From IMG/VR virus record IMGVR_UViG_2711768070_000008, positions 1 to 19,628 of that record: DNA of 19,628 nt, one strand, 5' to 3'. Shown here piece after piece: positions 2,399-19,573 of this stretch. The stretch's first letter is position 1. Each line of letters starts with the position of its first letter. The notes beneath the pieces were generated by a model. It was not told the origin of the DNA and ran no database searches. It saw only the letters and a list, made by a program, of their open reading frames with translations. The stretch is from a virus (Duplodnaviria; Heunggongvirae; Uroviricota; Caudoviricetes). Made by a program: the position numbers and the translations under genes.

Positions 2399-2554
2399 TT
2401 ACTCCTCAGGTTCGTAAGCTGTGAAGACAGCGACCTCCGTCTGGCCGGTTCGGATTCGTACCTCGCAGAGGTCTTTCCTCGTTACCAGTGCCGTCACTAT
2501 GACGGTGATACAGATGACGATCAGGGCGATTAACATCGCCTTTTGCTGCTTCAT
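2399..2554 (-). CDS. hokD: Hok family type I toxin (HokD/RelF-like), 51 aa
   Basis: Sequence MKQQKAMLIALIVICITVIVTALVTRKDLCEVRIRTGQTEVAVFTAYEPEE is a textbook Hok peptide; AAGGAG RBS 9 nt upstream of the ATG at 2554; track ORF 2399..2611 includes a spurious in-frame N-terminal extension. Confidence 0.9.
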   Translation of the reverse strand: MKQQKAMLIALIVICITVIVTALVTRKDLCEVRIRTGQTEVAVFTAYEPEE

Positions 2555-2720
2555 AGCCTGCTTCTCCTTGCCTTTCGGCGCGTAAGAGGCTAACCTACAT
2601 ATGTCTAGCATGAAATTGGCCTCAGATTAATGTTAGGCGTCTTGCAGGACGCGTAATGTTAACTGGGGCTTTTCTCTGTCTGCCTTACGGTGGCATGCCC
2701 GAGGCAGACAGCCTCAAGCA
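2555..2720 (-). promoter_or_regulatory. Structured hok mRNA leader; possible mok/Sok antisense region
   Basis: Several stem-loops (e.g. CTGTCTGCC at 2676-2684 with GGCAGACAG at 2703-2711; GAGGC/GCCTC at 2701-2715) directly upstream of hok; no relBE genes present. Sok itself is not identified. Confidence 0.35.
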
Positions 2721-2769
2721 CCCGCAGCAATTCTACTTAACTCTCGCTTTACCGCAAACCGTTTTTACC

Positions 2770-8028: not shown

Positions 8029-8070
8029 TAGGCATAGCCTATTGACAAGTAATTAGGCATTTCCTATAGT
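8029..8070 (+). promoter_or_regulatory. Left operator/promoter (PL-equivalent): sigma70 promoter overlapped by operators
   Basis: TTGACA (8042-8047), 17-bp spacer, TATAGT (8065-8070); operators TAGGCATAGCCTA (8029-8041) and TAGGCATTTCCTA (8054-8066). Confidence 0.65.
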
Positions 8071-8251
8071 TTTCCCATACCAACCCATCCCGTCCCACAC
8101 AATACAGGGCAATACCTCGAGTTACCAGGCAGTGGTCAGGGGTTAAGTAGCCAGCCCGAGGCGTAAGAACATGACGGCAGGGTTCAACTTTAATAACTAT
8201 GCAGCAGGTTTTTGTTCCGCTACCCCGGCGTTAAGGGGAAATGAGGTCAGC

Positions 8252-8404
8252 ATGGATACTATCGATCTTGGCAACAGCGAATCTCTGGTATGTGGCGTGT
8301 TCCCCAACCAGGACGGTACGTTCACCGCGATGACGTATACCAAAAGCAAAACGTTTAAAACTGAAGCTGGCGCGCGTCGCTGGTTAACCAGAAACACTGA
8401 CTGA
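8252..8404 (+). CDS. DUF1391 small protein (YdfA/YdaF-like), 50 aa
   Basis: Internal ATG at 8252 with GAGG RBS; first gene after the PL-like promoter; family assignment from memory. Confidence 0.6.
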   Translation: MDTIDLGNSESLVCGVFPNQDGTFTAMTYTKSKTFKTEAGARRWLTRNTD

Positions 8405-8415
8405 TGAGGTTGACG

Positions 8416-8790
8416 ATGGAATTTAAAGATTTACCAGTACCATTCCAGGAAATGGCATCGAATGTGGTTCGCTCTCAACTGGCGACTCTTGACCTGAGTA
8501 CCGTAGAAAAAGAAACCATCGATACTATATCCGGTAACGTGCGTCGTGCCTTTATCGGTCTGTACGAAGAGAAGCAGCTCTCTGATAACCAGGATTTACA
8601 TGAAAAATACTTCATGGAATTAATGGACATCATTAATAAAGGATTTGGCTTGTTAATGAAAAAGAAAGGGATTCGAATAGCTCCCCTTGAAAATCATTTT
8701 ACAGCGAGCAGTATTAATTCCTGTGATTTAAAGCATCACACATCCGATGGGAAAGTTGAATCAAACAACAAAATATCAATTAATCATTAA
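8416..8790 (+). CDS. Hypothetical protein, 124 aa
   Basis: ATG 8416 with GAGG RBS (start 8404 also possible); in the position of ydfB/ydfC upstream of dicF. Confidence 0.55.
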   Translation: MEFKDLPVPFQEMASNVVRSQLATLDLSTVEKETIDTISGNVRRAFIGLYEEKQLSDNQDLHEKYFMELMDIINKGFGLLMKKKGIRIAPLENHFTASSINSCDLKHHTSDGKVESNNKISINH

Positions 8791-9094: not shown

Positions 9095-9147
9095 TTTCTG
9101 GTGACGTTTGGCGGTATCAGTTTTACTCCGTGACTGCTCTGCCGCCC
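9095..9147 (+). ncRNA. dicF: DicF small RNA (ftsZ-targeting), 53 nt, with terminator U-tail to 9152
   Basis: Sequence TTTCTGGTGACGTTTGGCGGTATCAGTTTTACTCCGTGACTGCTCTGCCGCCC matches the DicF sequence as recalled; GGCGG...GCCGCC stem then TTTTT; directly upstream of dicB. Confidence 0.7.
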
Positions 9148-9321: not shown

Positions 9322-9510
9322 ATGGAAACGTTATTACCAAACGTTAATACGTCTGAAGGTTGTTTTGAAATTGGTGTCACTATCAGTAACCCTGTATTTA
9401 CTGAAGATGCCATTAACAAGAGAAAACACGAACGGGAGCTATTAAATAAAATATGCATTCTTTCAATGCTGGCCCGTTTACGTCCGATACAAAAAGGATG
9501 CTGGCAATGA
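9322..9510 (+). CDS. dicB: Cell division inhibitor DicB, 62 aa
   Basis: METLLPNVNTSEGCFEIGVTISNPVFTEDAINKRK... recognised as DicB; GAGGA RBS; track ORF 9217..9510 is an N-terminal over-extension. Confidence 0.8.
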   Translation: METLLPNVNTSEGCFEIGVTISNPVFTEDAINKRKHERELLNKICILSMLARLRPIQKGCWQ

Positions 9511-9698
9511 ATACAGCATTTGCACTTGTTCTGACAGTTTTTCTTGTTTCCGGAGAGCCAGTTGATATTGCAGTCAGCGTTCACAGGACAATGCAGGAGT
9601 GTGTGACTGCAGCAACCGAACAGAAAATTCCCGGTAACTGTTACCCGGTCGATAAAGTTATTCACCAGGATAATATCGAAATCCCGGCAGGTCTTTAA
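9507..9698 (+). CDS. ydfD: YdfD-like small protein with hydrophobic N-terminal segment, 63 aa
   Basis: ATGA overlap with the dicB stop; AAGGA RBS; N-terminus MNTAFALVLTVFLVSG. Confidence 0.6.
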   Translation: MNTAFALVLTVFLVSGEPVDIAVSVHRTMQECVTAATEQKIPGNCYPVDKVIHQDNIEIPAGL

Positions 9699-9790: not shown

Positions 9791-12262
9791 ATGAGTAAAG
9801 TCTTTATTTGCGCCGCCATTCCGGACGAACAGGCAATAAAGGAAGAAGGTGCAGTCGCTGTAGCCACTGCCATTGAAGCTGGCGACGAACGCCGTGCTCG
9901 AGCAAAATTTCACTGGCAGTTCCTGGAACATTATCCGGCTGCTCAGGACTGCGCTTATAAATTTATTGTCTGCGAGGATAAACCTGGCATACCCCGCCCT
10001 GCCCTCGATTCATGGGATGCTGAATATATGCAGGAAAACCGCTGGGATGAGGAGTCTGCTTCTTTTGTCCCGGTTGAGACTGAATCCGATCCGATGAACG
10101 TCACTTTTGACAAGCTGGCCCCTGAAGTACAGAACGCTGTCATGGTTAAGTTCGACACATGTGAAAACATCACCGTTGATATGGTGATTAGCGCACAGGA
10201 ATTGTTGCAGGAAGACATGGCAACATTCGACGGACATATCGTTGAAGCGTTGATGAAAATGCCAGAAGTTAACGCCATGTATCCGGAGCTTAAGCTGCAT
10301 GCCATCGGGTGGGTTAAGCATAAATGTAAGCCTGGTGCCAAATGGCCCGAAATTCAGGCAGAGATGCGCATCTGGAAAAAACGTCGCGAAGGTGAACGCA
10401 AGGAAACCGGAAAATACACGTCTGTTGTTGATCTCGCCCGCGCCAGAGTCAATCAACAGCACACTGAAAATTCAACAGGAAAAATCAGCCTGGTCATTGC
10501 TGCCATTCATCGCGAATACAAGCAGACATGGAAAACACTGGATGACGAACTGGCCTACGCTCTCTGGCCTGGTGATGTGGATGCCGGAAACATTGACGGC
10601 AGCATCCATCGCTGGGCAAAAAATGAAGTTATCGACAACGACCGCGAAGACTGGAAGCGTATCTCGGCATCAATGCGCAAACAGCCTGATGCCCTTCGCT
10701 ACGACCGCCAGACTATTTTTGGCCTTGTCCGTGAACGTCCGATCGACATTCACAAAGACCCTGTGGCACTGAACAAATACATTACTGAATACCTGACTAC
10801 AAAGGGCGTGTTTGAAGATGAAGGAACAAATCAGAGCGCAACTGATACTCTCTCGTCGTCAGTACCAGAAACTGATGCAGTGGAAACGGCAATTCCGGAC
10901 AACGAAAAAACCGAATGCAAAGTGGAAGTCGAACCATCTGTAGAGCGTGAGGGGCCGTTCTACTTCCTCTTCACCGACAAGGATGGCGAAAAATACGGTC
11001 GCGCAAACAAACTTTCTGGTCTGGATAAGGCACTGGCTGCCGGGGCTACTGAAATCACGAAAGAAGAATATTTCGCCCGCAAAAACAGTACATACTCAGG
11101 TTCACAACAAAATACTGGTGCATCTGACACGACCGCACAACCAGAGCCGGTAAAAGTTACCGCTGACGAAGTAAACAAAATTATGCAGGCAGCCAATATC
11201 AGCCAGCCTGACGCCGATAAGTTGCTTGCTGCCTCTCGCGGAGAATTTGTTGCAGGGATTAGCGACCCGAATGATCCGAAATGGGTTAAGGGGATCCAGA
11301 CCCGCGATTCTGTAAACCAGAACCAGCATGAATCGGAACGGAACTACCAAAAAGCGGAACAAAACAGCCCAAATGCGTTACAAAACGAGCCAGAAACGAA
11401 ACAGCCTGAACCAGTGGCGCAACAGGAAGTGGAAAAAGTCTGCACCGCCTGCGGTCAGACCGGCGGCGGCAACTGCCCTGATTGTGGCGCAGTGATGGGC
11501 GACGCAACATACCAGGAAACATTCGATGAAGAGTATCAGGTTGAAGTTCAGGAAGATGATCCGGAGAAAATGGAAGGCGCTGAACATCCACACAAGGAGA
11601 ACACTGGCGGCAATCAGCATCACGATAGCGATAATGAAACTGGCGAGACGGCAGATCACTCAATTAAGGTGAACGGTCATCAAGAAATCACATCCACCAG
11701 CAGGACGTGTGACCATCTAATGATCGACCTTGAAACCATGGGAAAAAATCCTGATGCCCCGATCATCTCAATAGGTGCAATATTTTTCGATCCGCAAACC
11801 GGAGATATGGGACCGGAATTTAGTAAGACTATCGATCTGGAAACTGCTGGCGGAGTCATTGATCGGGACACCATTAAATGGTGGCTTAAGCAATCACGCG
11901 AAGCGCAATCTGCCATTATGACCGATGAAATCCCGTTAGATGATGCACTGTTACAATTGCGGGAATTTATCGACGAAAACTCCGGTGAATTTTTTGTTCA
12001 GGTCTGGGGAAATGGAGCCAACTTCGACAACACGATTTTGCGCCGTTCATACGAACGGCAGGGGATCCCCTGCCCGTGGCGTTACTACAACGATCGCGAT
12101 GTACGCACAATCGTTGAGCTGGGGAAAGCCATAGACTTCGATGCCAGAACGGCTATTCCATTCGAAGGTGAGCGCCATAATGCACTTGATGACGCCCGTT
12201 ACCAGGCAAAATACGTTTCAGTTATCTGGCAAAAACTGATCCCGAGTCAGGCTGATTTTTAA
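9791..12262 (+). CDS. Large prophage exonuclease, 823 aa: RecE-like central segment, CxxC-x8-CxxC zinc ribbon, C-terminal DnaQ-like DEDDh 3'-5' exonuclease domain
   Basis: GAGGT RBS; segment [31 protein letters not shown] recalled from Rac RecE; C-terminal motifs [16 protein letters not shown] and HNALDDA; [16 protein letters not shown]. Confidence 0.8.
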
Positions 12263-12320: not shown

Positions 12321-12524
12321 ATGAGCAACTTATTTTTAACCGAAGATGAATTGCTAATATTAACGGGCTGCAAATATGCAAGCCACCAGCGAAAATGGTT
12401 AACGGAAAACGGGCTTCCGTTCTATACCAATCGTAGTGGCAAACCGATTGTCAGCCGGGATCTATTTACCTGCAATAAAACTTTACCACCACGCGAGGTA
12501 GAGCCGAATTTTGGTGCAATCTAA
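12321..12524 (+). CDS. xis: Excisionase-like protein (Xis)
   Basis: 67 aa, immediately upstream of int with a 1-nt overlap; resembles small phage excisionases. Confidence 0.6.
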   Translation: MSNLFLTEDELLILTGCKYASHQRKWLTENGLPFYTNRSGKPIVSRDLFTCNKTLPPREVEPNFGAI

Positions 12525-13549
12525 TGGGAAGACGAAGGAAAAATCCTGAACACGAAAAACTACCTCCAAATGTATACCCAAATAAATATAGTTATGTATG
12601 GAAACCAACATCCAGAGAATCTGTCACACTAACCGCCATCAAGGATGGTTTAGCTGCTTTATGGAAAAAGTATGAGGAAACTGTAAATAATCGCGATCGT
12701 GCAATGACATTCGGTCGCTTGTGGGAAAAATTCCTCGCCAGCGCCTATTACAGTGACCTCAGTCCAAGAACACAAAAAGATTATCTGCAACATCAAAAAA
12801 AGTTGCTTGCCGTATTCGGTAAGGTGCCGGCAGATTCCATAAAACCAGAACACATCCGTCGATACATGGACAAGAGAGGGGAACAGAGTAAAACGCAAGC
12901 CAACCATGAAAAAAGCAGTATGTCCCGCGTTTACAGTTGGGGGTATGAGCGAGGGTACGTGAAGGCTAACCCATGTGCAGGTGTAAGTAAATTCAAGGCC
13001 AAAAACCGCGAACGATATGTAACCGACAAAGAATACCAGGCAGTATTAAGCGTTGCACCTCTTCCTGTTTTTATCGCAATGGAAATTGCCTATCTGTGTG
13101 CAGCGAGGGTTTCCGATGTGTTATCGCTGAAATGGGAGCAGATTGGAAACGACGGAATCTTTATCCAGCAAGGGAAAACAGGAAAAAAACAGATAAAAGC
13201 ATGGAGTCCACGATTACAGGCGGCGATCGAAAAAGCAAAACAGTTACCAACATCCGCCTATGTAATCAGTAATCAATACGGCAACCGATATATGTACAAA
13301 GGCTTTAACGAAATGTGGGTAGAAGCAAGAAATCGCGCAGGCAAAATTTCAGGTATTTTAACCGACTTCACCTTTCATGATCTGAAGGCGAAAGGAATTT
13401 CAGACTATGAAGGAAGCAGTCGGGATAAGCAACTTTTCTCTGGTCACAAAACCGAGGGGCAAGTGCTAATCTATGACAGGAAGGTTAAAGTTTCACCGAC
13501 ACTTGATGTCCCGTTACCTGAAAATATTCCAAGAAAATATTCCAAGTAA
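12524..13549 (+). CDS. int: Lambda-family tyrosine integrase
   Basis: 341 aa; C-terminal catalytic region with R...HDLKAKG...Y (LIYDRK); ends 52 bp from the tRNA-Ser 3' end. Confidence 0.9.
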   Translation: MGRRRKNPEHEKLPPNVYPNKYSYVWKPTSRESVTLTAIKDGLAALWKKYEETVNNRDRAMTFGRLWEKFLASAYYSDLSPRTQKDYLQHQKKLLAVFGKVPADSIKPEHIRRYMDKRGEQSKTQANHEKSSMSRVYSWGYERGYVKANPCAGVSKFKAKNRERYVTDKEYQAVLSVAPLPVFIAMEIAYLCAARVSDVLSLKWEQIGNDGIFIQQGKTGKKQIKAWSPRLQAAIEKAKQLPTSAYVISNQYGNRYMYKGFNEMWVEARNRAGKISGILTDFTFHDLKAKGISDYEGSSRDKQLFSGHKTEGQVLIYDRKVKVSPTLDVPLPENIPRKYSK

Positions 13550-13601: not shown

Positions 13602-13691
13602 TGGCGGAGAGAGGGGGATTTGAACCCCCGGTGGAGTTGCCCCCACTCCGGTTTTCGAGACCGGTCCGTTCAGCCGCTCCGGCATCTCTCC
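13602..13691 (-). tRNA. serU: tRNA-Ser (anticodon CGA)
   Basis: 90 nt; GGAGAGA acceptor stem, long variable arm, GGTTCAAATCC T-loop, CCA end; anticodon loop CU-CGA-AA. Confidence 0.9.
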
Positions 13692-14682: not shown

Positions 14683-14758
14683 TCCTCTGTAGTTCAGTCG
14701 GTAGAACGGCGGACTGTTAATCCGTATGTCACTGGTTCGAGTCCAGTCAGAGGAGCCA
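14683..14758 (+). tRNA. asnT: tRNA-Asn (anticodon GTT)
   Basis: 76 nt canonical E. coli tRNA-Asn sequence; the asnT name comes only from its position next to mtfA. Confidence 0.95.
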
Positions 14759-14765
14759 TTTTCAA

Positions 14766-14795
14766 GAAAGCAGACGTTCACTAACGTCTGCTTTC
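14766..14795 (+). terminator. Stem-loop downstream of tRNA-Asn
   Basis: GAAAGCAGACGTT-CACT-AACGTCTGCTTTC perfect 13-bp stem; following tract is only moderately T-rich. Confidence 0.55.
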
Positions 14796-14938
14796 TGCAT
14801 TTCTATCAATTGGTTATCCCCTCTCAGTCGTTCACCCTCGTTCACTAAAAACCACTCGAAGCCATATCATTTTGATGGTAAAAATGCTGGTAATGCTGGT
14901 TCGATTTCCCTTTTACCAACAAATGAGGGGGTGTTTTC

Positions 14939-16213
14939 ATGTCACTGACTGATATTAAAGCAAAAAATGCAAAACCCCTTGAGAAGGAATACAAGCTTAC
15001 TGATGGCTTTGGTATGTTCCTTCGTGTTACCCCTAAAGGTTCGAAATACTGGCAAATGGCTTACCGCTTCGAAGGGAAACAAAAACTCTTCTCTATTGGT
15101 GTTTACCCTGCAGTTTCTCTTTCTGACGCAAGACAACGCCGTGACGAGGCCAGAAGGCTTCTGGCTCAGGGTATTGACCCTAATGCAAAGAAACAGGCAG
15201 AGGTTAAAGAGCTTAAAGCCAAACGTGATAATACACGCTCCTTCAGAACAGTAGCCAAAGCGTGGTTCTCCACGAAAACAAAATGGTCTGATGATTATGG
15301 CGATGCCGTATGGAAGCGCCTTGAAACTTATGTCTTCCCGGTAATCGGTGACAAAGATGTTGCCGAACTGGATACGGGTGATCTGCTGGTTCCGGTGAAA
15401 AAAGTTGAGGCTCTTGGTTATCTTGAAGTTGCCATGCGCATTCAACAATACATTACGGCAATCCTGCGTCATGCCGTCCAGCAAAAGCTGATACGCCATA
15501 ACCCAGCCTATGATATGGAAGGTGCAGTTCAGAAACCACAAACTGAACACCGCCCTGCACTTGAGCTGGAAGAAATACCCCAGCTACTGAACAAAATTGC
15601 CGAATACAAAGGCCGCAGGTTAACCATACTGGCAATACAGCTCAATCTGATGATTTTCATTCGTTCCAGTGAGCTTCGTTTCGCTCGCTGGTCTGAAATT
15701 GATTTCAAAAGTAAGTTATGGGTGATACCCGAACAGCGTGAAGCAATTGAAAACGTCAAACATTCGACTCGTGGTGCCAAAATGAAGCGTAAGCACTTCG
15801 TTCCCCTTTGTAAGCAAGCTATGAGGATACTAAAAGAGATCCGACAACTGACTTATGAAGAAGGCCATGATGATGGATTAATCTTCACTGGCTGTTATGA
15901 CTCGTTTAAACCCATGAGTGAAAACACCATCAACAAAGCCCTGCGTAATATGGGATATAACACGAAGCAGGACATCTGTGGACACGGTTTCCGCACTCTG
16001 GCCTGTAGTGCCTTAATTGAGTCCGGGCTATGGTCAGAAGACGCTGTAGAGCTTCAAATGAGCCATAAGGAAAGCAACAGCGTCCGTGCTGCTTATACCC
16101 ACAAGGCTAAACACCTTGATCAACGCCGTCTGATGCTCCAATGGTGGGCTGACTACCTTGATGCAAGCAGAAACGGTATGGTAAGGCCGTTTGAGTTTGC
16201 TTCAAATAAATAA
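14939..16213 (+). CDS. int: P4-type tyrosine integrase
   Basis: 424 aa; N-terminus MSLTDIKAKNAKP...YKLTDGFGMFLRVTPKGSKYW typical of P4-like integrases; C-terminal HGFRTL...Y catalytic motifs; GAGGGGG RBS. Confidence 0.9.
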   Translation: MSLTDIKAKNAKPLEKEYKLTDGFGMFLRVTPKGSKYWQMAYRFEGKQKLFSIGVYPAVSLSDARQRRDEARRLLAQGIDPNAKKQAEVKELKAKRDNTRSFRTVAKAWFSTKTKWSDDYGDAVWKRLETYVFPVIGDKDVAELDTGDLLVPVKKVEALGYLEVAMRIQQYITAILRHAVQQKLIRHNPAYDMEGAVQKPQTEHRPALELEEIPQLLNKIAEYKGRRLTILAIQLNLMIFIRSSELRFARWSEIDFKSKLWVIPEQREAIENVKHSTRGAKMKRKHFVPLCKQAMRILKEIRQLTYEEGHDDGLIFTGCYDSFKPMSENTINKALRNMGYNTKQDICGHGFRTLACSALIESGLWSEDAVELQMSHKESNSVRAAYTHKAKHLDQRRLMLQWWADYLDASRNGMVRPFEFASNK

Positions 16214-16216
16214 AGG

Positions 16217-16238
16217 GAAAGGCCGTTCGCGGCCTTTC
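16217..16238. terminator. Hairpin between convergent int and orphan gene (possible bidirectional terminator)
   Basis: GAAAGGCCG-TTCG-CGGCCTTTC. Confidence 0.5.
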
Positions 16239-16259
16239 AACTTCATGCTTAATTACACT

Positions 16260-17651
16260 CTATGCTGAATATGATACTGAATCTTTCTCTATCACTAAAC
16301 CAGCGATTTTTTCCAGCATTATTTCCCAGAGTGCGTATTTTCTTTTGTGCTCAATAAACAGGGATTTTAAATACTCTTCTGTAGAAGGGATTTTTTCAGT
16401 CCATGTAATATCTTTACTGTAATCAATGCTTTTTTTCATATCAGATGCTGCATAGGTGTAGTATTTACTCTGAGAACGACTGATACTGTCCTCTGCCAGA
16501 ACTCTACGGAGCAGAGTTGCAGAACATGCATAACCATGCCTGTAAAGTTCACTCGATAAAGTACGAACAAAAGAACCGCGTAATAAAGACATCATCTCTG
16601 CGATTTCATTTTCACTCGCATTCATGACTTCAGAATCAAGTTTTCCATAACTATCCGTCCCGGACAAGAAAAGAATAACAAACGGAAAGCCTTTGTTCTT
16701 TGCTATGCCAGAGAACAAATCCAGTGAGTCATTATTTTTCTCTACCCGATTATAGATATTATAAAAAATAACATCACACCTGTTCTTAAATCCGTCTATA
16801 CAAATTGTTTTTGCCTGCTGAATCTCGCCTTCTTCAATCAACGCCAGAGCCAACACCTCAGTCCATTTATCACGAAGCCCTGCCTGATCAACTGATTTAT
16901 CTTCTTTGATTTTATTGAGAACCTGAATGGCTTCCTCAGTGCACAGTTCATCAACCAGCAACTCAGCAAACTTAATGATGTATTCTGGCTGGTTCAGTTT
17001 TCTTTTCTCAAAGCATTGCCTGATGAAATCAACATCCCTGATATACAGACTTAACTCAACAGCATAATTAACATTACCTGTCTTAAGAAGACTTTCCCTT
17101 AAAGCACGAATAACATTGTATCCAAGCTCTTTTTTATACTTATCAAAAATATCAAAGTTAAAATATACATCACCTTTAAGCACGGAAAGTATTTTATCCG
17201 CTATAACATCAATGCTTTTATCTTTTTGTAGGGACAGGGATTTTAACCATGTTTCGACAGCACCATTATAATAGTCCATCCATGATCCATCTGATGTATC
17301 AGCAATTTCGCTGATTTTATCAAATGAGAGCAGTAAATCATGGCAAAACGCCTCGGTTTTTTCAGGCAGCGTTGATACCGTCTTTTCAAGTGGAAATATG
17401 ACATTCCTGTATAGCCCCTCAAAAAAAACCGCTGCTTCATAATAATCATAAAAGCGTTTTGTTTTAATTACCCTTTTGTATTCAGCCTCAGCCTTTTTCA
17501 GTGATTCTTCTGGAGTTAACAGATATTTATTAATAATAAAGGATTTTGCCTGACCATTATTCTCTGCAATATCACAAATTATTTGCATGAGTTGATCGGC
17601 AGGCATTTCCTTGAGTAAAGCAAGTTGTTTCTTGTTCAGTTTAGCCATCAT
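16260..17651 (-). CDS. Orphan protein of unknown function (~463 aa; 484 aa from the farthest ATG), AT-rich, predicted largely helical
   Basis: Long ORF with no recognisable catalytic motifs; start placed at ATG 17651 or 17648 (AGGA upstream) rather than 17714 (no RBS); divergent from the mod gene. Confidence 0.7.
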   Translation of the reverse strand: MMAKLNKKQLALLKEMPADQLMQIICDIAENNGQAKSFIINKYLLTPEESLKKAEAEYKRVIKTKRFYDYYEAAVFFEGLYRNVIFPLEKTVSTLPEKTEAFCHDLLLSFDKISEIADTSDGSWMDYYNGAVETWLKSLSLQKDKSIDVIADKILSVLKGDVYFNFDIFDKYKKELGYNVIRALRESLLKTGNVNYAVELSLYIRDVDFIRQCFEKRKLNQPEYIIKFAELLVDELCTEEAIQVLNKIKEDKSVDQAGLRDKWTEVLALALIEEGEIQQAKTICIDGFKNRCDVIFYNIYNRVEKNNDSLDLFSGIAKNKGFPFVILFLSGTDSYGKLDSEVMNASENEIAEMMSLLRGSFVRTLSSELYRHGYACSATLLRRVLAEDSISRSQSKYYTYAASDMKKSIDYSKDITWTEKIPSTEEYLKSLFIEHKRKYALWEIMLEKIAGLVIEKDSVSYSA

Positions 17652-17842
17652 CACATCCTGATAATGTTTGGTAGACGCATAAAAGCTAATTGTACTAATA
17701 CAAGGACAGGACATTCAATAAATGCATTAACATAATGATTTAAAAAGAAATCTGTAGCACACTGTTCATTGATGAAATGCACTATTTACCGTAAAATATC
17801 CCCCATCACACAGTAACCTGATACAGATACGTGGAATGGTCA

Positions 17843-19573
17843 ATGAACAAACTTTCGCCTGAAATGCCCGAACTGCAATCAATGAATATCACTGCCGATA
17901 ACATCACCAAACTTAAATCATTGTTTCCTGAAGCCTTTAATGAAAACGGCATTGATTTTGACGTTTTAAAACAGCTTTTGGGTGAAAATGTAGACGAAAA
18001 AGAAGAACGCTATGGCCTGAACTGGCATGGTAAGCGTCAGGCTCGTCAGCTTGCTCTTACCCCTTCCCGTGGCACCTTACGCCCATGTAAAGATGAAAGC
18101 GTTGATTGGGATAACACCAAGAACCTCATGATCGAGGGTGATAACCTTGAAGTATTGAAGCTTCTTCAAAAAAGTTATGCCGGAAAAGTTAAGCTTATTT
18201 ATATTGATCCACCTTACAATACCGGTAAAGATTTTGTTTATTCTGATAACTTCCAAGATAACATGAAAAATTATCTTGAAATGACAGGACAAACAGAAGA
18301 TGGGGTACGAATCACCACAAACGCAGAAACCAGTGGACGTTACCATACTGATTGGTTAAATATGATTTACCCACGTTTAAAACTTGCAAGAAACTTGTTG
18401 AAAGAAGATGGAGTTATTTTCATTTCCATTGATGATGCTGAAGTTGATAATTTAAAAAAAGTTTGCTCGGAAATCTTTGGTGAAGAGAACTTTGTTGCTA
18501 ATATTGTATGGCAAAAAAAATACTCACCACAAAATGATGCCACATATTTTAGTGATATGCATGATCATATTTTAGTATATGCAAAGCAACGGAAGAATTC
18601 AAAAAATGATTCAAATGGTTGGAACATAGATTTTCTACCAAGATCAGACGAACAAAATGCAGCGTATAAAAACCCCGACAATGACCCTCGTGGAGTTTGG
18701 AAGTCTGTAGATTTATCAGTCAAAACTTATTCCAAGGCTAATGATTACTCAATTACCACACCATCAGGACGTATTGTAACTCCTCCCGCCAGTAGATGCT
18801 GGCAGGTTTCTGAAAAACGTTTTGCAGAATTGTGTAAAGAAAATAAAATTTGGTTTGGAGAAAATGGTAATAATGTTCCATCAATCAAAAGATTCCTGAC
18901 TGAGGTCCAAGATGGTGTTGTTCCTACAACATGGTGGTCATATAAAGAATGTGGCCATAATCAAGAGGCCAAACAGGAACTAAAAAAACTCATGGAGGGA
19001 GAATCTGTATTCTTTGACACGCCTAAACCATTGAGATTATTAGATAGAATATTACATTTAGCAACAACCAATGATAAAAATAGTATTATCCTAGATTTTT
19101 TCGCTGGGTCAGGTACCACGGCTCACGCAACTTTGAATAAAAATATTGCTGACAGTGGTTCACGCCGATATATTGCTGTGCAATTACCTGAAAAAATAGA
19201 TGATGAAAAATACCATACAATATCAGAACTAACCAAAGAACGCCTCCGCCGCGCGGGTAAAAAGGTTCGTGAAGACAATCCAGAGTGGAAAGGTGACGTT
19301 GGTTTTCGTGTTTTCAAACTCGATACATCTAATATCCGTCCGTGGGAAGCCACAGCAGAAACCCTTTCAGAACAGATTGATGCCTATGTAAGCCCAATCC
19401 TTGAAGGCCGTAGTGAAGAAGATTTGCTCACAGAGTTAATGCTAAAGCGTGGCATTGACTTGAGTGTTAACATTGAAACCCGTCAGTTTGATGGATTAAC
19501 CGTTTCTTGTGTTGACGGTGGCAAATTGTTTACCTGCTTTGCTAAGGAAGGTGCGAACAAGTTCCTGATATGA
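17843..19573 (+). CDS. mod: Type III restriction-modification methyltransferase (Mod), N6-adenine, beta class
   Basis: Motif IV IYIDPPYNTGKDF precedes motif I DFFAGSGTTAHA; ATG 17843 preferred over the GTG at 17831. Confidence 0.85.
   Translation: MNKLSPEMPELQSMNITADNITKLKSLFPEAFNENGIDFDVLKQLLGENVDEKEERYGLNWHGKRQARQLALTPSRGTLRPCKDESVDWDNTKNLMIEGDNLEVLKLLQKSYAGKVKLIYIDPPYNTGKDFVYSDNFQDNMKNYLEMTGQTEDGVRITTNAETSGRYHTDWLNMIYPRLKLARNLLKEDGVIFISIDDAEVDNLKKVCSEIFGEENFVANIVWQKKYSPQNDATYFSDMHDHILVYAKQRKNSKNDSNGWNIDFLPRSDEQNAAYKNPDNDPRGVWKSVDLSVKTYSKANDYSITTPSGRIVTPPASRCWQVSEKRFAELCKENKIWFGENGNNVPSIKRFLTEVQDGVVPTTWWSYKECGHNQEAKQELKKLMEGESVFFDTPKPLRLLDRILHLATTNDKNSIILDFFAGSGTTAHATLNKNIADSGSRRYIAVQLPEKIDDEKYHTISELTKERLRRAGKKVREDNPEWKGDVGFRVFKLDTSNIRPWEATAETLSEQIDAYVSPILEGRSEEDLLTELMLKRGIDLSVNIETRQFDGLTVSCVDGGKLFTCFAKEGANKFLI

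Follow-up and report, generated by a model that had tools for sequence, protein, structure and literature searches.

How a lambdoid prophage comes to encode a RecE-like protein that carries another nuclease than that of RecE and has no recT beside it, and what such a protein might do, are the questions raised by a stretch of 19,628 nucleotides from virus record IMGVR_UViG_2711768070_000008 (Caudoviricetes; the whole stretch is called 'the window' below). The window comprises the early region and the right-hand end of a lambdoid E. coli prophage resembling Rac and Qin, integrated at a tRNA-Ser gene next to mtfA. An open reading frame (ORF) on its plus strand, with an ATG start and a GAGG Shine-Dalgarno sequence approximately 9 nt upstream, encodes a protein of 823 amino acids (aa) that was identical to WP_053909255.1 by exact-sequence look-up and matched PHROG 2082 over its full length (Table 1). 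An original prediction, made from the DNA letters, had described the protein as RecE-like in its centre, with a zinc ribbon, a C-terminal exonuclease of the DnaQ type (DEDDh), xis-int directly downstream and no RecT partner. This description was largely borne out by the analyses presented here, from which the 823-aa protein is very probably an active 3'-5' exonuclease of the DEDDh class, borne on a RecE-type carrier.

The C-terminal domain was matched by Pfam PF16473 (Rv2179c-like 3'-5' exoribonuclease domain) with an E-value of 2.3e-67 and 226.5 bits, against a cut-off of 27, over positions 2-177 of the 177 in the profile. The three motifs quoted in the original prediction contain the five DEDDh catalytic residues, D646 and E648 in MIDLETMG, D746 in GNGANFD, and H796 and D801 in HNALDDA, which align with D7, E9, D119, H186 and D191 of T4 DexA, respectively. 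All five were invariant across the fused relatives, the stand-alone relatives, an EcD-like protein described below and T4-type DexA, at identities as low as 25% (the value for RB14 exonuclease A, dexA, against the C-terminal domain). In one fused relative of 752 aa (P0249), DLE is replaced by DLK and FDN by FAN; with two of the five catalytic residues lost, this protein is possibly an inactive derivative. In a sequence search of the PDB with the 823-aa protein, the closest solved relative was a 227-aa 'Exodeoxyribonuclease' (8kel/8ken), and Rv2179c itself was not retrieved.

Ahead of this domain the protein is RecE-like, as had been proposed: residues 262-625 aligned by BLASTP with residues 278-591 of K-12 RecE (39% identity, E-value 8e-62), the last 160 or so residues of the stretch being the most conserved, and no alignment extended past RecE residue 591. 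At the nucleotide level, window positions 11215-11657 matched recE nt 1365-1765 with 77% identity by blastn. This homology ended at 11657, corresponding to residue 622 here and to residue 588 of RecE, shortly before the nuclease domain of RecE that has been crystallised. The NCBIfam RecE model NF007259 was matched by residues 246-625 only (model positions 271-602 of 877), the score of 284 bits falling short of its equivalog cut-off of 1269, and tblastn with the PD-(D/E)XK domain of RecE (RecE 564/606-866) gave no match in the window. Both the domain search and the RecE alignment therefore place the C-terminus in the DnaQ-like group and not in the PD-(D/E)XK fold of RecE and lambda Exo.

The first 260 residues call for a correction, as they are not RecE-like and form a separate, YdfE-type module. 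Residues 1-256 were 97% identical to the Qin pseudogene ydfE of K-12, of which the window holds the intact form, and no conserved catalytic-looking motif was seen in the module. PF06630 (Exonuc_VIII), which is matched by relatives with a RecE-type N-terminus, was absent among the Pfam matches of the 823-aa protein. An AlphaFold2 (AF2) model of residues 1-460, computed from an alignment of 19 sequences, was confident (mean predicted local distance difference test score, pLDDT, of 80) and contained four folded modules (residues 1-100, 105-205, 245-340 and 388-432), joined by linkers with pLDDT below 50 across most of residues 207-237, 344-384 and 438-460. The helical block at residues 262-345 was present in 38 long representatives, spanning every cassette type of the RecE-scaffold family. 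The N-terminal module and the DEDDh domain are both under purifying selection, with ratios of nonsynonymous to synonymous divergence (dN/dS) of 0.09-0.19 and 0.10-0.32, respectively.

A four-cysteine zinc ribbon is present approximately 75 residues ahead of the nuclease domain, as had been noted; its central spacer is of seven residues and not of eight (C551-x2-C554-x7-C562-x2-C565). The ribbon also occurs in RecE and in 8 of approximately 60 long relatives; within the RecE-type linker it is optional, and it is not specific to the DEDDh variant. The zinc-ribbon block, with the pattern C[NT]ACG..GGG.CPDCG.V.GDATY (window 11441-11520), was additionally found at the C-terminus of a Dam-like DNA methylase (L110:5187-6167, minus strand; BLASTP E-value 8e-13) whose gene adjoins an EcD-like stand-alone DEDDh gene in a P2-like prophage, and looks like a small mobile module joined to different DNA enzymes.

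The absence of an annealing partner was likewise upheld. RecT was found in none of the six frames of the window (tblastn, best E-value 1.4), which leaves no sign of a recT homologue in a missed frame, and neither an annealase nor SSB or Gam was detected in Pfam scans of 20 window ORFs (ORFs below 50 aa being outside the profile scan). Seeds of Bet, Erf, Rad52-type, Sak4-type, SSB, Gam and Abc2 proteins gave nothing credible in the window by tblastn; the sole match with an E-value below 0.01, a Gam-like one of 37 residues on the strand opposite the DUF968 gene, is regarded as a chance match. The exonuclease gene is directly followed by xis-int, in agreement with the original prediction, in the form of a DUF4224 excisionase-like gene and a tyrosine integrase gene.

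Related prophages were also examined for an annealing protein. A set of 80 DEDDh-domain loci from species-representative genomes included 57 stand-alone genes, 16 intact fusions and 2 broken fusions. None of the 18 fused genes, which came from other species, had RecT, Bet, Erf, Rad52-type or Sak4-type genes nearby, nor was an annealase found in any of 80 viral-contig loci of the window's type, these being E. coli copies identical or nearly identical to that of the window. Loci with the RecE nuclease cassette, by comparison, contained recT in 80 of 80 cases, and 80 loci with a third cassette (see below) contained no known exonuclease, RecT or Bet. Stand-alone DEDDh proteins, most of them of approximately 185-200 aa, are usually encoded in the same slot as the fused form, directly upstream of xis-int, and 7 of the 57 genes adjoined Erf, Rad52_Rad22 or AAA_24 (Sak4-type) genes together with SSB (Pfam-confirmed). 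About 22 of the 57 were preceded by a conserved trio of YfdP-like, YfdQ (DUF2303) and YfdR-like genes (for example L012:5900-8300; loci L011-L066), the YfdR-like protein of which had a weak YfbR-like Pfam match only, and a phage RdgC gene was seen in six loci of the same range.

Two previously described phage systems are close to the window's gene. Across the entire catalytic domain, the C-terminus was 56% identical (E-value 8e-72) to gp34 of phage epsilon34, and the DEDDh residues are the same in both. The gp34 gene, like that of the window, belongs to an early-left operon, in which it is flanked by abc2 and an SSB gene, the latter adjoined on its far side by a gene for a putative recombination protein, gp36; gp34, however, is a stand-alone protein of 182 aa, whereas the domain in the window is fused to a 630-aa scaffold and lacks the SSB, Abc2 and recombination-protein partners. 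In passages of a survey of 314 lambdoid phages (PMC12315714, Genome Res 2025), gp34 is judged a legitimate recombination-module nuclease, and Table 1 of the survey lists a 'Tritos' module type, defined by a nuclease without annealing protein, SSB or anti-RecBCD function and represented by four phages, all Chi-rich. In its nuclease and its lack of these partner genes, the window agrees with this type by the Pfam scans and six-frame tblastn searches given above. The Tritos exonuclease TRITO_27 is essentially the same gene (95.3% nucleotide identity over the whole gene), with neighbours in identical order (dicF, dicB, ydfD, exonuclease, xis, int), and the name it bears in GenBank, 'exonuclease VIII, ds DNA exonuclease', implies a fold and a polarity that are incorrect for this nuclease.

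Exonuclease VIII proper, the RecE protein of Rac, shares with the window's protein the helical block, the acidic zinc-ribbon linker and the early-left operon position, and is likewise a large protein with its catalytic domain in the last 200-280 residues or so. The two differ in that RecE combines a 5'-3' PD-(D/E)XK nuclease with recT, whereas the 823-aa protein has a DEDDh domain, of predicted 3'-5' polarity, and no recT downstream; its first 260 residues, moreover, are a YdfE-type module without the Pfam Exonuc_VIII match. YdfE of K-12 Qin has the same operon context as the intact gene of the window and is a pseudogene cut by IS2. Rv2179c of Mycobacterium tuberculosis, from which PF16473 takes its name, is annotated as an RNase and is neither phage-borne nor fused.

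Of the four Chi sites (GCTGGTGG) found in the window, one falls within the exonuclease gene, immediately ahead of the part encoding the DEDDh domain, another within the xis-like gene, and none in the host/island part. No shuffled sequence out of 200 reached four sites; the window covers only part of the prophage, and four per 19.6 kb is, by our own estimate, roughly the density of the E. coli chromosome, so that enrichment is not used as evidence here.

Taken as a mechanism, the approximately 630 non-catalytic residues would constitute a RecE-family scaffold (YdfE module, helical block, beta module and acidic zinc-ribbon linker) that carries a two-metal DEDDh 3'-to-5' exonuclease of the DexA/epsilon34-gp34 type instead of the 5'-to-3' PD-(D/E)XK nuclease of RecE. 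The protein, probably made from the early-left promoter upon prophage induction, would use its catalytic domain to strip nucleotides from free 3'-OH ends of DNA, and would be the single component that the phage contributes to a minimal recombination module of the nuclease-only kind; as no phage annealase is encoded, strand annealing or exchange would have to be supplied by host functions (RecA, RecBCD-Chi). The homology to DexA and gp34, and a carrier common to a DNA exonuclease, make DNA the probable substrate. A role as the sole phage part of a minimal recombination or DNA-end-processing module working with host RecA/RecBCD is the best-supported function, and is put forward tentatively, its chances of being correct appearing close to evenly balanced. 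The role is suggested by the position of the gene and by its homology to members of recombination modules; it is also favoured by the recombination nuclease RecE being carried on the same scaffold, and by the retention of the gene in the isolated phages Tritos, mEp460_ev081 and HannyBb.

Several points weigh against a recombination role. The passages of PMC12315714 on such modules state that 3'-5' exonucleases usually inhibit rather than promote recombination, and describe modules of one or two genes as 'somewhat suspect'. The locus sets hold many near-identical prophages, and the counts obtained from them represent a consistent pattern and not independent events. PF16473 is named after an RNase, and the substrate might be RNA. 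As for the scaffold, no recognisable fold relatives were found and its function is not known in RecE itself (PMC11611040), so that what it contributes here is a guess.

Four alternatives were considered. According to PMC12153337 (NAR 2025), T4 DexA is a 3'-5' DNA exonuclease whose W152, with the acidic D169, is needed for recognition of 5-hydroxymethylcytosine (5hmC), and its stand-alone E. coli homologue EcD ('HREX'), in which a change of the tetramer-forming D90 to Ala is tied to modification specificity, cuts 5hmC DNA and, on a plasmid, degrades T4 DNA and protects against T4. Both share the Pfam family and the catalytic residues with the window's domain, which lacks the insertions of DexA, and both are stand-alone proteins. 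Proteins of 189 aa were found on viral contigs from the EcD primers; one of them, which starts at the forward primer and ends in ...TPFLNI near the end implied by the reverse primer, is taken here to be EcD-like. It has Ala78 aligned to DexA D90, and is 37% identical to the window's domain, with the same catalytic residues. On these grounds the 823-aa protein might be an anti-phage or anti-competitor nuclease that destroys modified (for example 5hmC) DNA of superinfecting T-even phages, but this appears unlikely. The column of DexA W152 is occupied by Tyr766 here and by W, Y or C among fused relatives, D169 of DexA lies inside a DexA-only insertion (MAFFT; the alignment is uncertain there), and the column of D90 holds Asp718, as in DexA and not Ala as in EcD. 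Furthermore, the gene is probably silent in the lysogen, given its place as a distal gene of an operon that begins right after the repressor gene racR and the lack of a strong promoter of its own, and the EcD-like gene is natively a prophage early gene as well. The genes matching the EcD primers (L089:2070-2636, minus strand, and those in L107, L110 and L105) are situated in the early operon of an integrated prophage, beside a methylase gene and near repressor and integrase genes, rather than in a defence island of the host.

An RNA 3'-5' exonuclease like Rv2179c, trimming or degrading host or phage transcripts in early lytic development, would accord with the annotation of the Pfam family as exoribonuclease, with the frequent RefSeq name '3'-5' exoribonuclease' and with the processed small RNA (sRNA) DicF being encoded in the same operon. 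It is nevertheless quite unlikely, as the PDB sequence match was only to the 'Exodeoxyribonuclease' entries and not to Rv2179c, the nearest phage relatives are in DNA recombination modules, and the carrier scaffold is common to a DNA exonuclease. The part of PMC12153337 that deals with established roles of DexA includes the scavenging of host DNA, and the homology to DexA could point to nucleotide scavenging or clearance of DNA fragments, without a role in recombination. A RecE-type scaffold of 630 residues would be unnecessary for clearing oligonucleotides, however, and the gene sits in the recombination slot beside xis-int, which makes scavenging very unlikely. Degradation of host DNA is, moreover, not known for lambdoid phages. 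That the gene might be a mosaic relic carried along with xis-int, with no function of its own, is suggested by strong intragenic mosaicism (synonymous divergence, dS, from 0 to 1.4 within one pairwise comparison) and by truncated or frameshifted copies (K-12 ydfE and loci L058 and L076), together with the catalytically altered P0249. This is highly improbable in view of the intact full-length copies in approximately 3,500 complete E. coli genomes and the presence of the cassette in 4,069, of dN/dS values well below 1 in the folded domains, of catalytic residues conserved down to 25% identity, and of the isolated phages that keep the gene.

The middle region was searched against 1.84 billion cluster representatives (50% clusters), which gave 148 relatives, and those of at least 400 aa were classified by local BLASTP. 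Two alternative N-terminal modules occur in this family, the YdfE type found in the window and the RecE type matching Pfam Exonuc_VIII, while the middle region is common to all classified relatives. At the C-terminus, three alternative cassettes were distinguished, namely DEDDh, the RecE PD-(D/E)XK nuclease, and a third domain without an above-threshold Pfam match, each of which was found with both N-terminal types; P0125, for example, joins a RecE N-terminus 99.6% identical to that of K-12 RecE to a DEDDh domain 98% identical to that of the window. Synonymous divergence was highly uneven along the gene: against L180, dS was 0 in residues 262-465 (helical block included) and 1.44 in the DEDDh domain, and against Tritos the linkers were far more diverged than the domains. 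This unevenness, seen in comparisons with L180, L002 and others, indicates that recombination has occurred repeatedly within the gene.

In viral loci L194-L273 (L194:8001-8804, for instance), the third cassette, of approximately 265 aa and with the motif ..CDGEAxKKSLTDAxKKALSxLGFSAD.., was joined to the YdfE/RecE-type scaffold in 79 of the 80 cases; representatives with it are P0174, P0183, P0185, P0186, P0205 and P0257. Its identification as a Rad52-type annealase was not accepted, as Pfam Rad52_Rad22 matches were sub-threshold only (best E-value 0.0024, in 7 of 8 members), and it is kept as a lead. The cassette had no PDB sequence match, and its hhalign comparison with a bona fide prophage protein of the Rad52 family gave no significant result. 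The cassette may correspond to the 'RecE-2' proteins, without a nuclease domain, that are mentioned in a passage of PMC12315714. The pairing of cassettes and partners (PD-(D/E)XK always with RecT, DEDDh never with an annealase, and the third domain, a possible Rad52-like annealase, never with a nuclease) raises the possibility, doubtful in our estimation, that the RecE-type scaffold is a general adaptor for interchangeable DNA-end effector cassettes. If this were true, the DEDDh form, the commonest in E. coli, would represent annealase-independent, host-RecA/RecBCD-dependent processing of DNA ends by lambdoid phages, with a polarity opposite to that of every studied phage recombination exonuclease.

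The gene order of the window (Table 1) is the same in annotated relatives, and is that of the K-12 Qin dicB operon, where the exonuclease gene survives only as the IS2-truncated pseudogene ydfE. The promoter-like sequence closest to consensus, TTGACA-17-TATAGT, lies between racR and the ydfA-like gene and is likely to be the early-left promoter of the operon ending in exonuclease-xis-int, as judged from its sequence and this matching gene order. The 128-aa ORF, with no credible Pfam match, occupies the place of ydfB and ydfC in K-12 Qin. The integrase is intact in the window (341 aa); in the two annotated relatives that were examined, H1 (which matches the gene best) and H37 (one of the best matches to the whole window), its annotation has a frameshift. 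Between the DUF968 and DUF551 genes lies a hok/sok type I toxin-antitoxin locus. Beyond mtfA, a second element is integrated at a tRNA-Asn gene and encodes a P4-type integrase, a 484-aa protein with a DUF6880 match and a 580-aa N6/N4 DNA methylase; close relatives have instead, at this site, a yersiniabactin island or a gene for an Ig-like protein.

Table 1. Positions in the window of the features discussed in the text, with the basis of each assignment (HTH, helix-turn-helix).
Feature	Position	Strand	Basis
Chi site	1261-1268	+
Chi site	1313-1320	+
hok/sok locus	2399-2723	-	Hok/gef Pfam; Rfam sok, 114 bits
RusA, DUF968, hok/sok, DUF551, DUF977, DUF1627, DnaC-like ATPase		-	Pfam/Rfam
HTH replication protein, YdaT, Cro-like YdaS		-	Pfam
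Plus-strand order: racR, DUF1391, 128-aa ORF, DicF, dicB, ydfD, 823-aa ORF, DUF4224, integrase, tRNA-Ser
Best promoter-like site	8042..8070	+	Consensus scan, 11/12 matches
128-aa ORF	8404-8790	+
DicF sRNA	9096-9147	+	Rfam, 76.7 bits
dicB	9322-9510	+	Pfam DicB, translation
ydfD	9507-9698	+	Pfam DUF1482, translation
823-aa exonuclease gene	9791..12262	+	ORF listing
YdfE-type N-terminal module, aa 1-260	9791..10570	+	Alpha/beta domain aa 1-100, helical domain aa 105-205
Conserved helical block, aa 262-345 (motif ..RWAK..I..DREDWKR.S..)	10574..10825	+	BLASTP to RecE; pLDDT ~94
Small beta-hairpin and helix module, aa 386-435	10946..11095	+	AF2 pLDDT ~90; dN/dS down to 0.03
Acidic low-complexity RecE-type linker, aa 466-625	11186..11665	+	blastn, protein alignment, composition
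Four-cysteine zinc ribbon, C551, C554, C562, C565	11441..11485	+	Read directly from sequence
Chi site	11694-11701	-
DEDDh 3'-5' exonuclease domain, aa 642-813	11714..12229	+	Pfam PF16473
DUF4224 excisionase-like gene	12321-12524	+	Pfam
Chi site	12383-12390	-
Tyrosine integrase	12524-13549	+	Pfam
tRNA-Ser, prophage end	13602-13691	-	ARAGORN
Second integrated element	14683-19573
tRNA-Asn	14683-14758
P4-type integrase	14939-16213
484-aa protein	16260-17714	-	DUF6880 match
580-aa N6/N4 DNA methylase	17831-19573

The gene is common, correctly annotated and catalogued, and is not new. The cluster containing WP_053909255.1 at 90% identity comprises 23,183 sequences, which bear the name 'exonuclease' or '3'-5' exoribonuclease', and RefSeq already uses the name '3'-5' exonuclease' or 'exonuclease' for the protein. 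Out of 5,426 complete E. coli genomes, 4,800 were matched by the whole gene, 3,533 of them at a coverage of at least 80%; the DEDDh cassette was present in 4,069 (75%), at 8,111 places, and the RecE nuclease cassette in 1,736, with recT also under the match in the five records listed. The full-length gene was found in phages Tritos, mEp460_ev081, HannyBb, PhiR42_1, Evi and the PPompW group, and several phage records label it 'exonuclease VIII' or 'exodeoxyribonuclease VIII'. A contig filed under a Veillonella parvula metagenome-assembled genome (L006, JAGZPX010000007.1) carries a gene with a RecE N-terminus and a DEDDh domain 100% identical to that of the window, with xis-int beside it, and is probably a mis-binned E. 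coli contig. A literature search gave nothing connecting Rv2179c, or RecE together with DEDDh, with prophages, and nothing relevant on ydfE as an exonuclease. The context without an annealase was published in 2025. What is added here is the three-part anatomy with its junction at RecE residue 588, the pattern of three cassettes on one scaffold with strict partner rules, the prevalence figures, and the link, at 56% identity, to a DnaQ-like nuclease of a canonical recombination module.

Among the RecE-like genes of E. coli this one is probably the most common, and names such as 'exonuclease VIII', which imply a 5'-3' nuclease and a RecT partner, would mislead recombineering or surveys of prophage function. 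It is the sole recombination-type gene in a class of Chi-rich lambdoid phages thought to depend on host RecBCD, and the role of a 3'-5' exonuclease there bears on replication and on the exchange of modules in phages without a recombinase of their own. The cassette pattern, finally, makes the N-terminal two-thirds of RecE, a part so far unexplained, more accessible to genetics.

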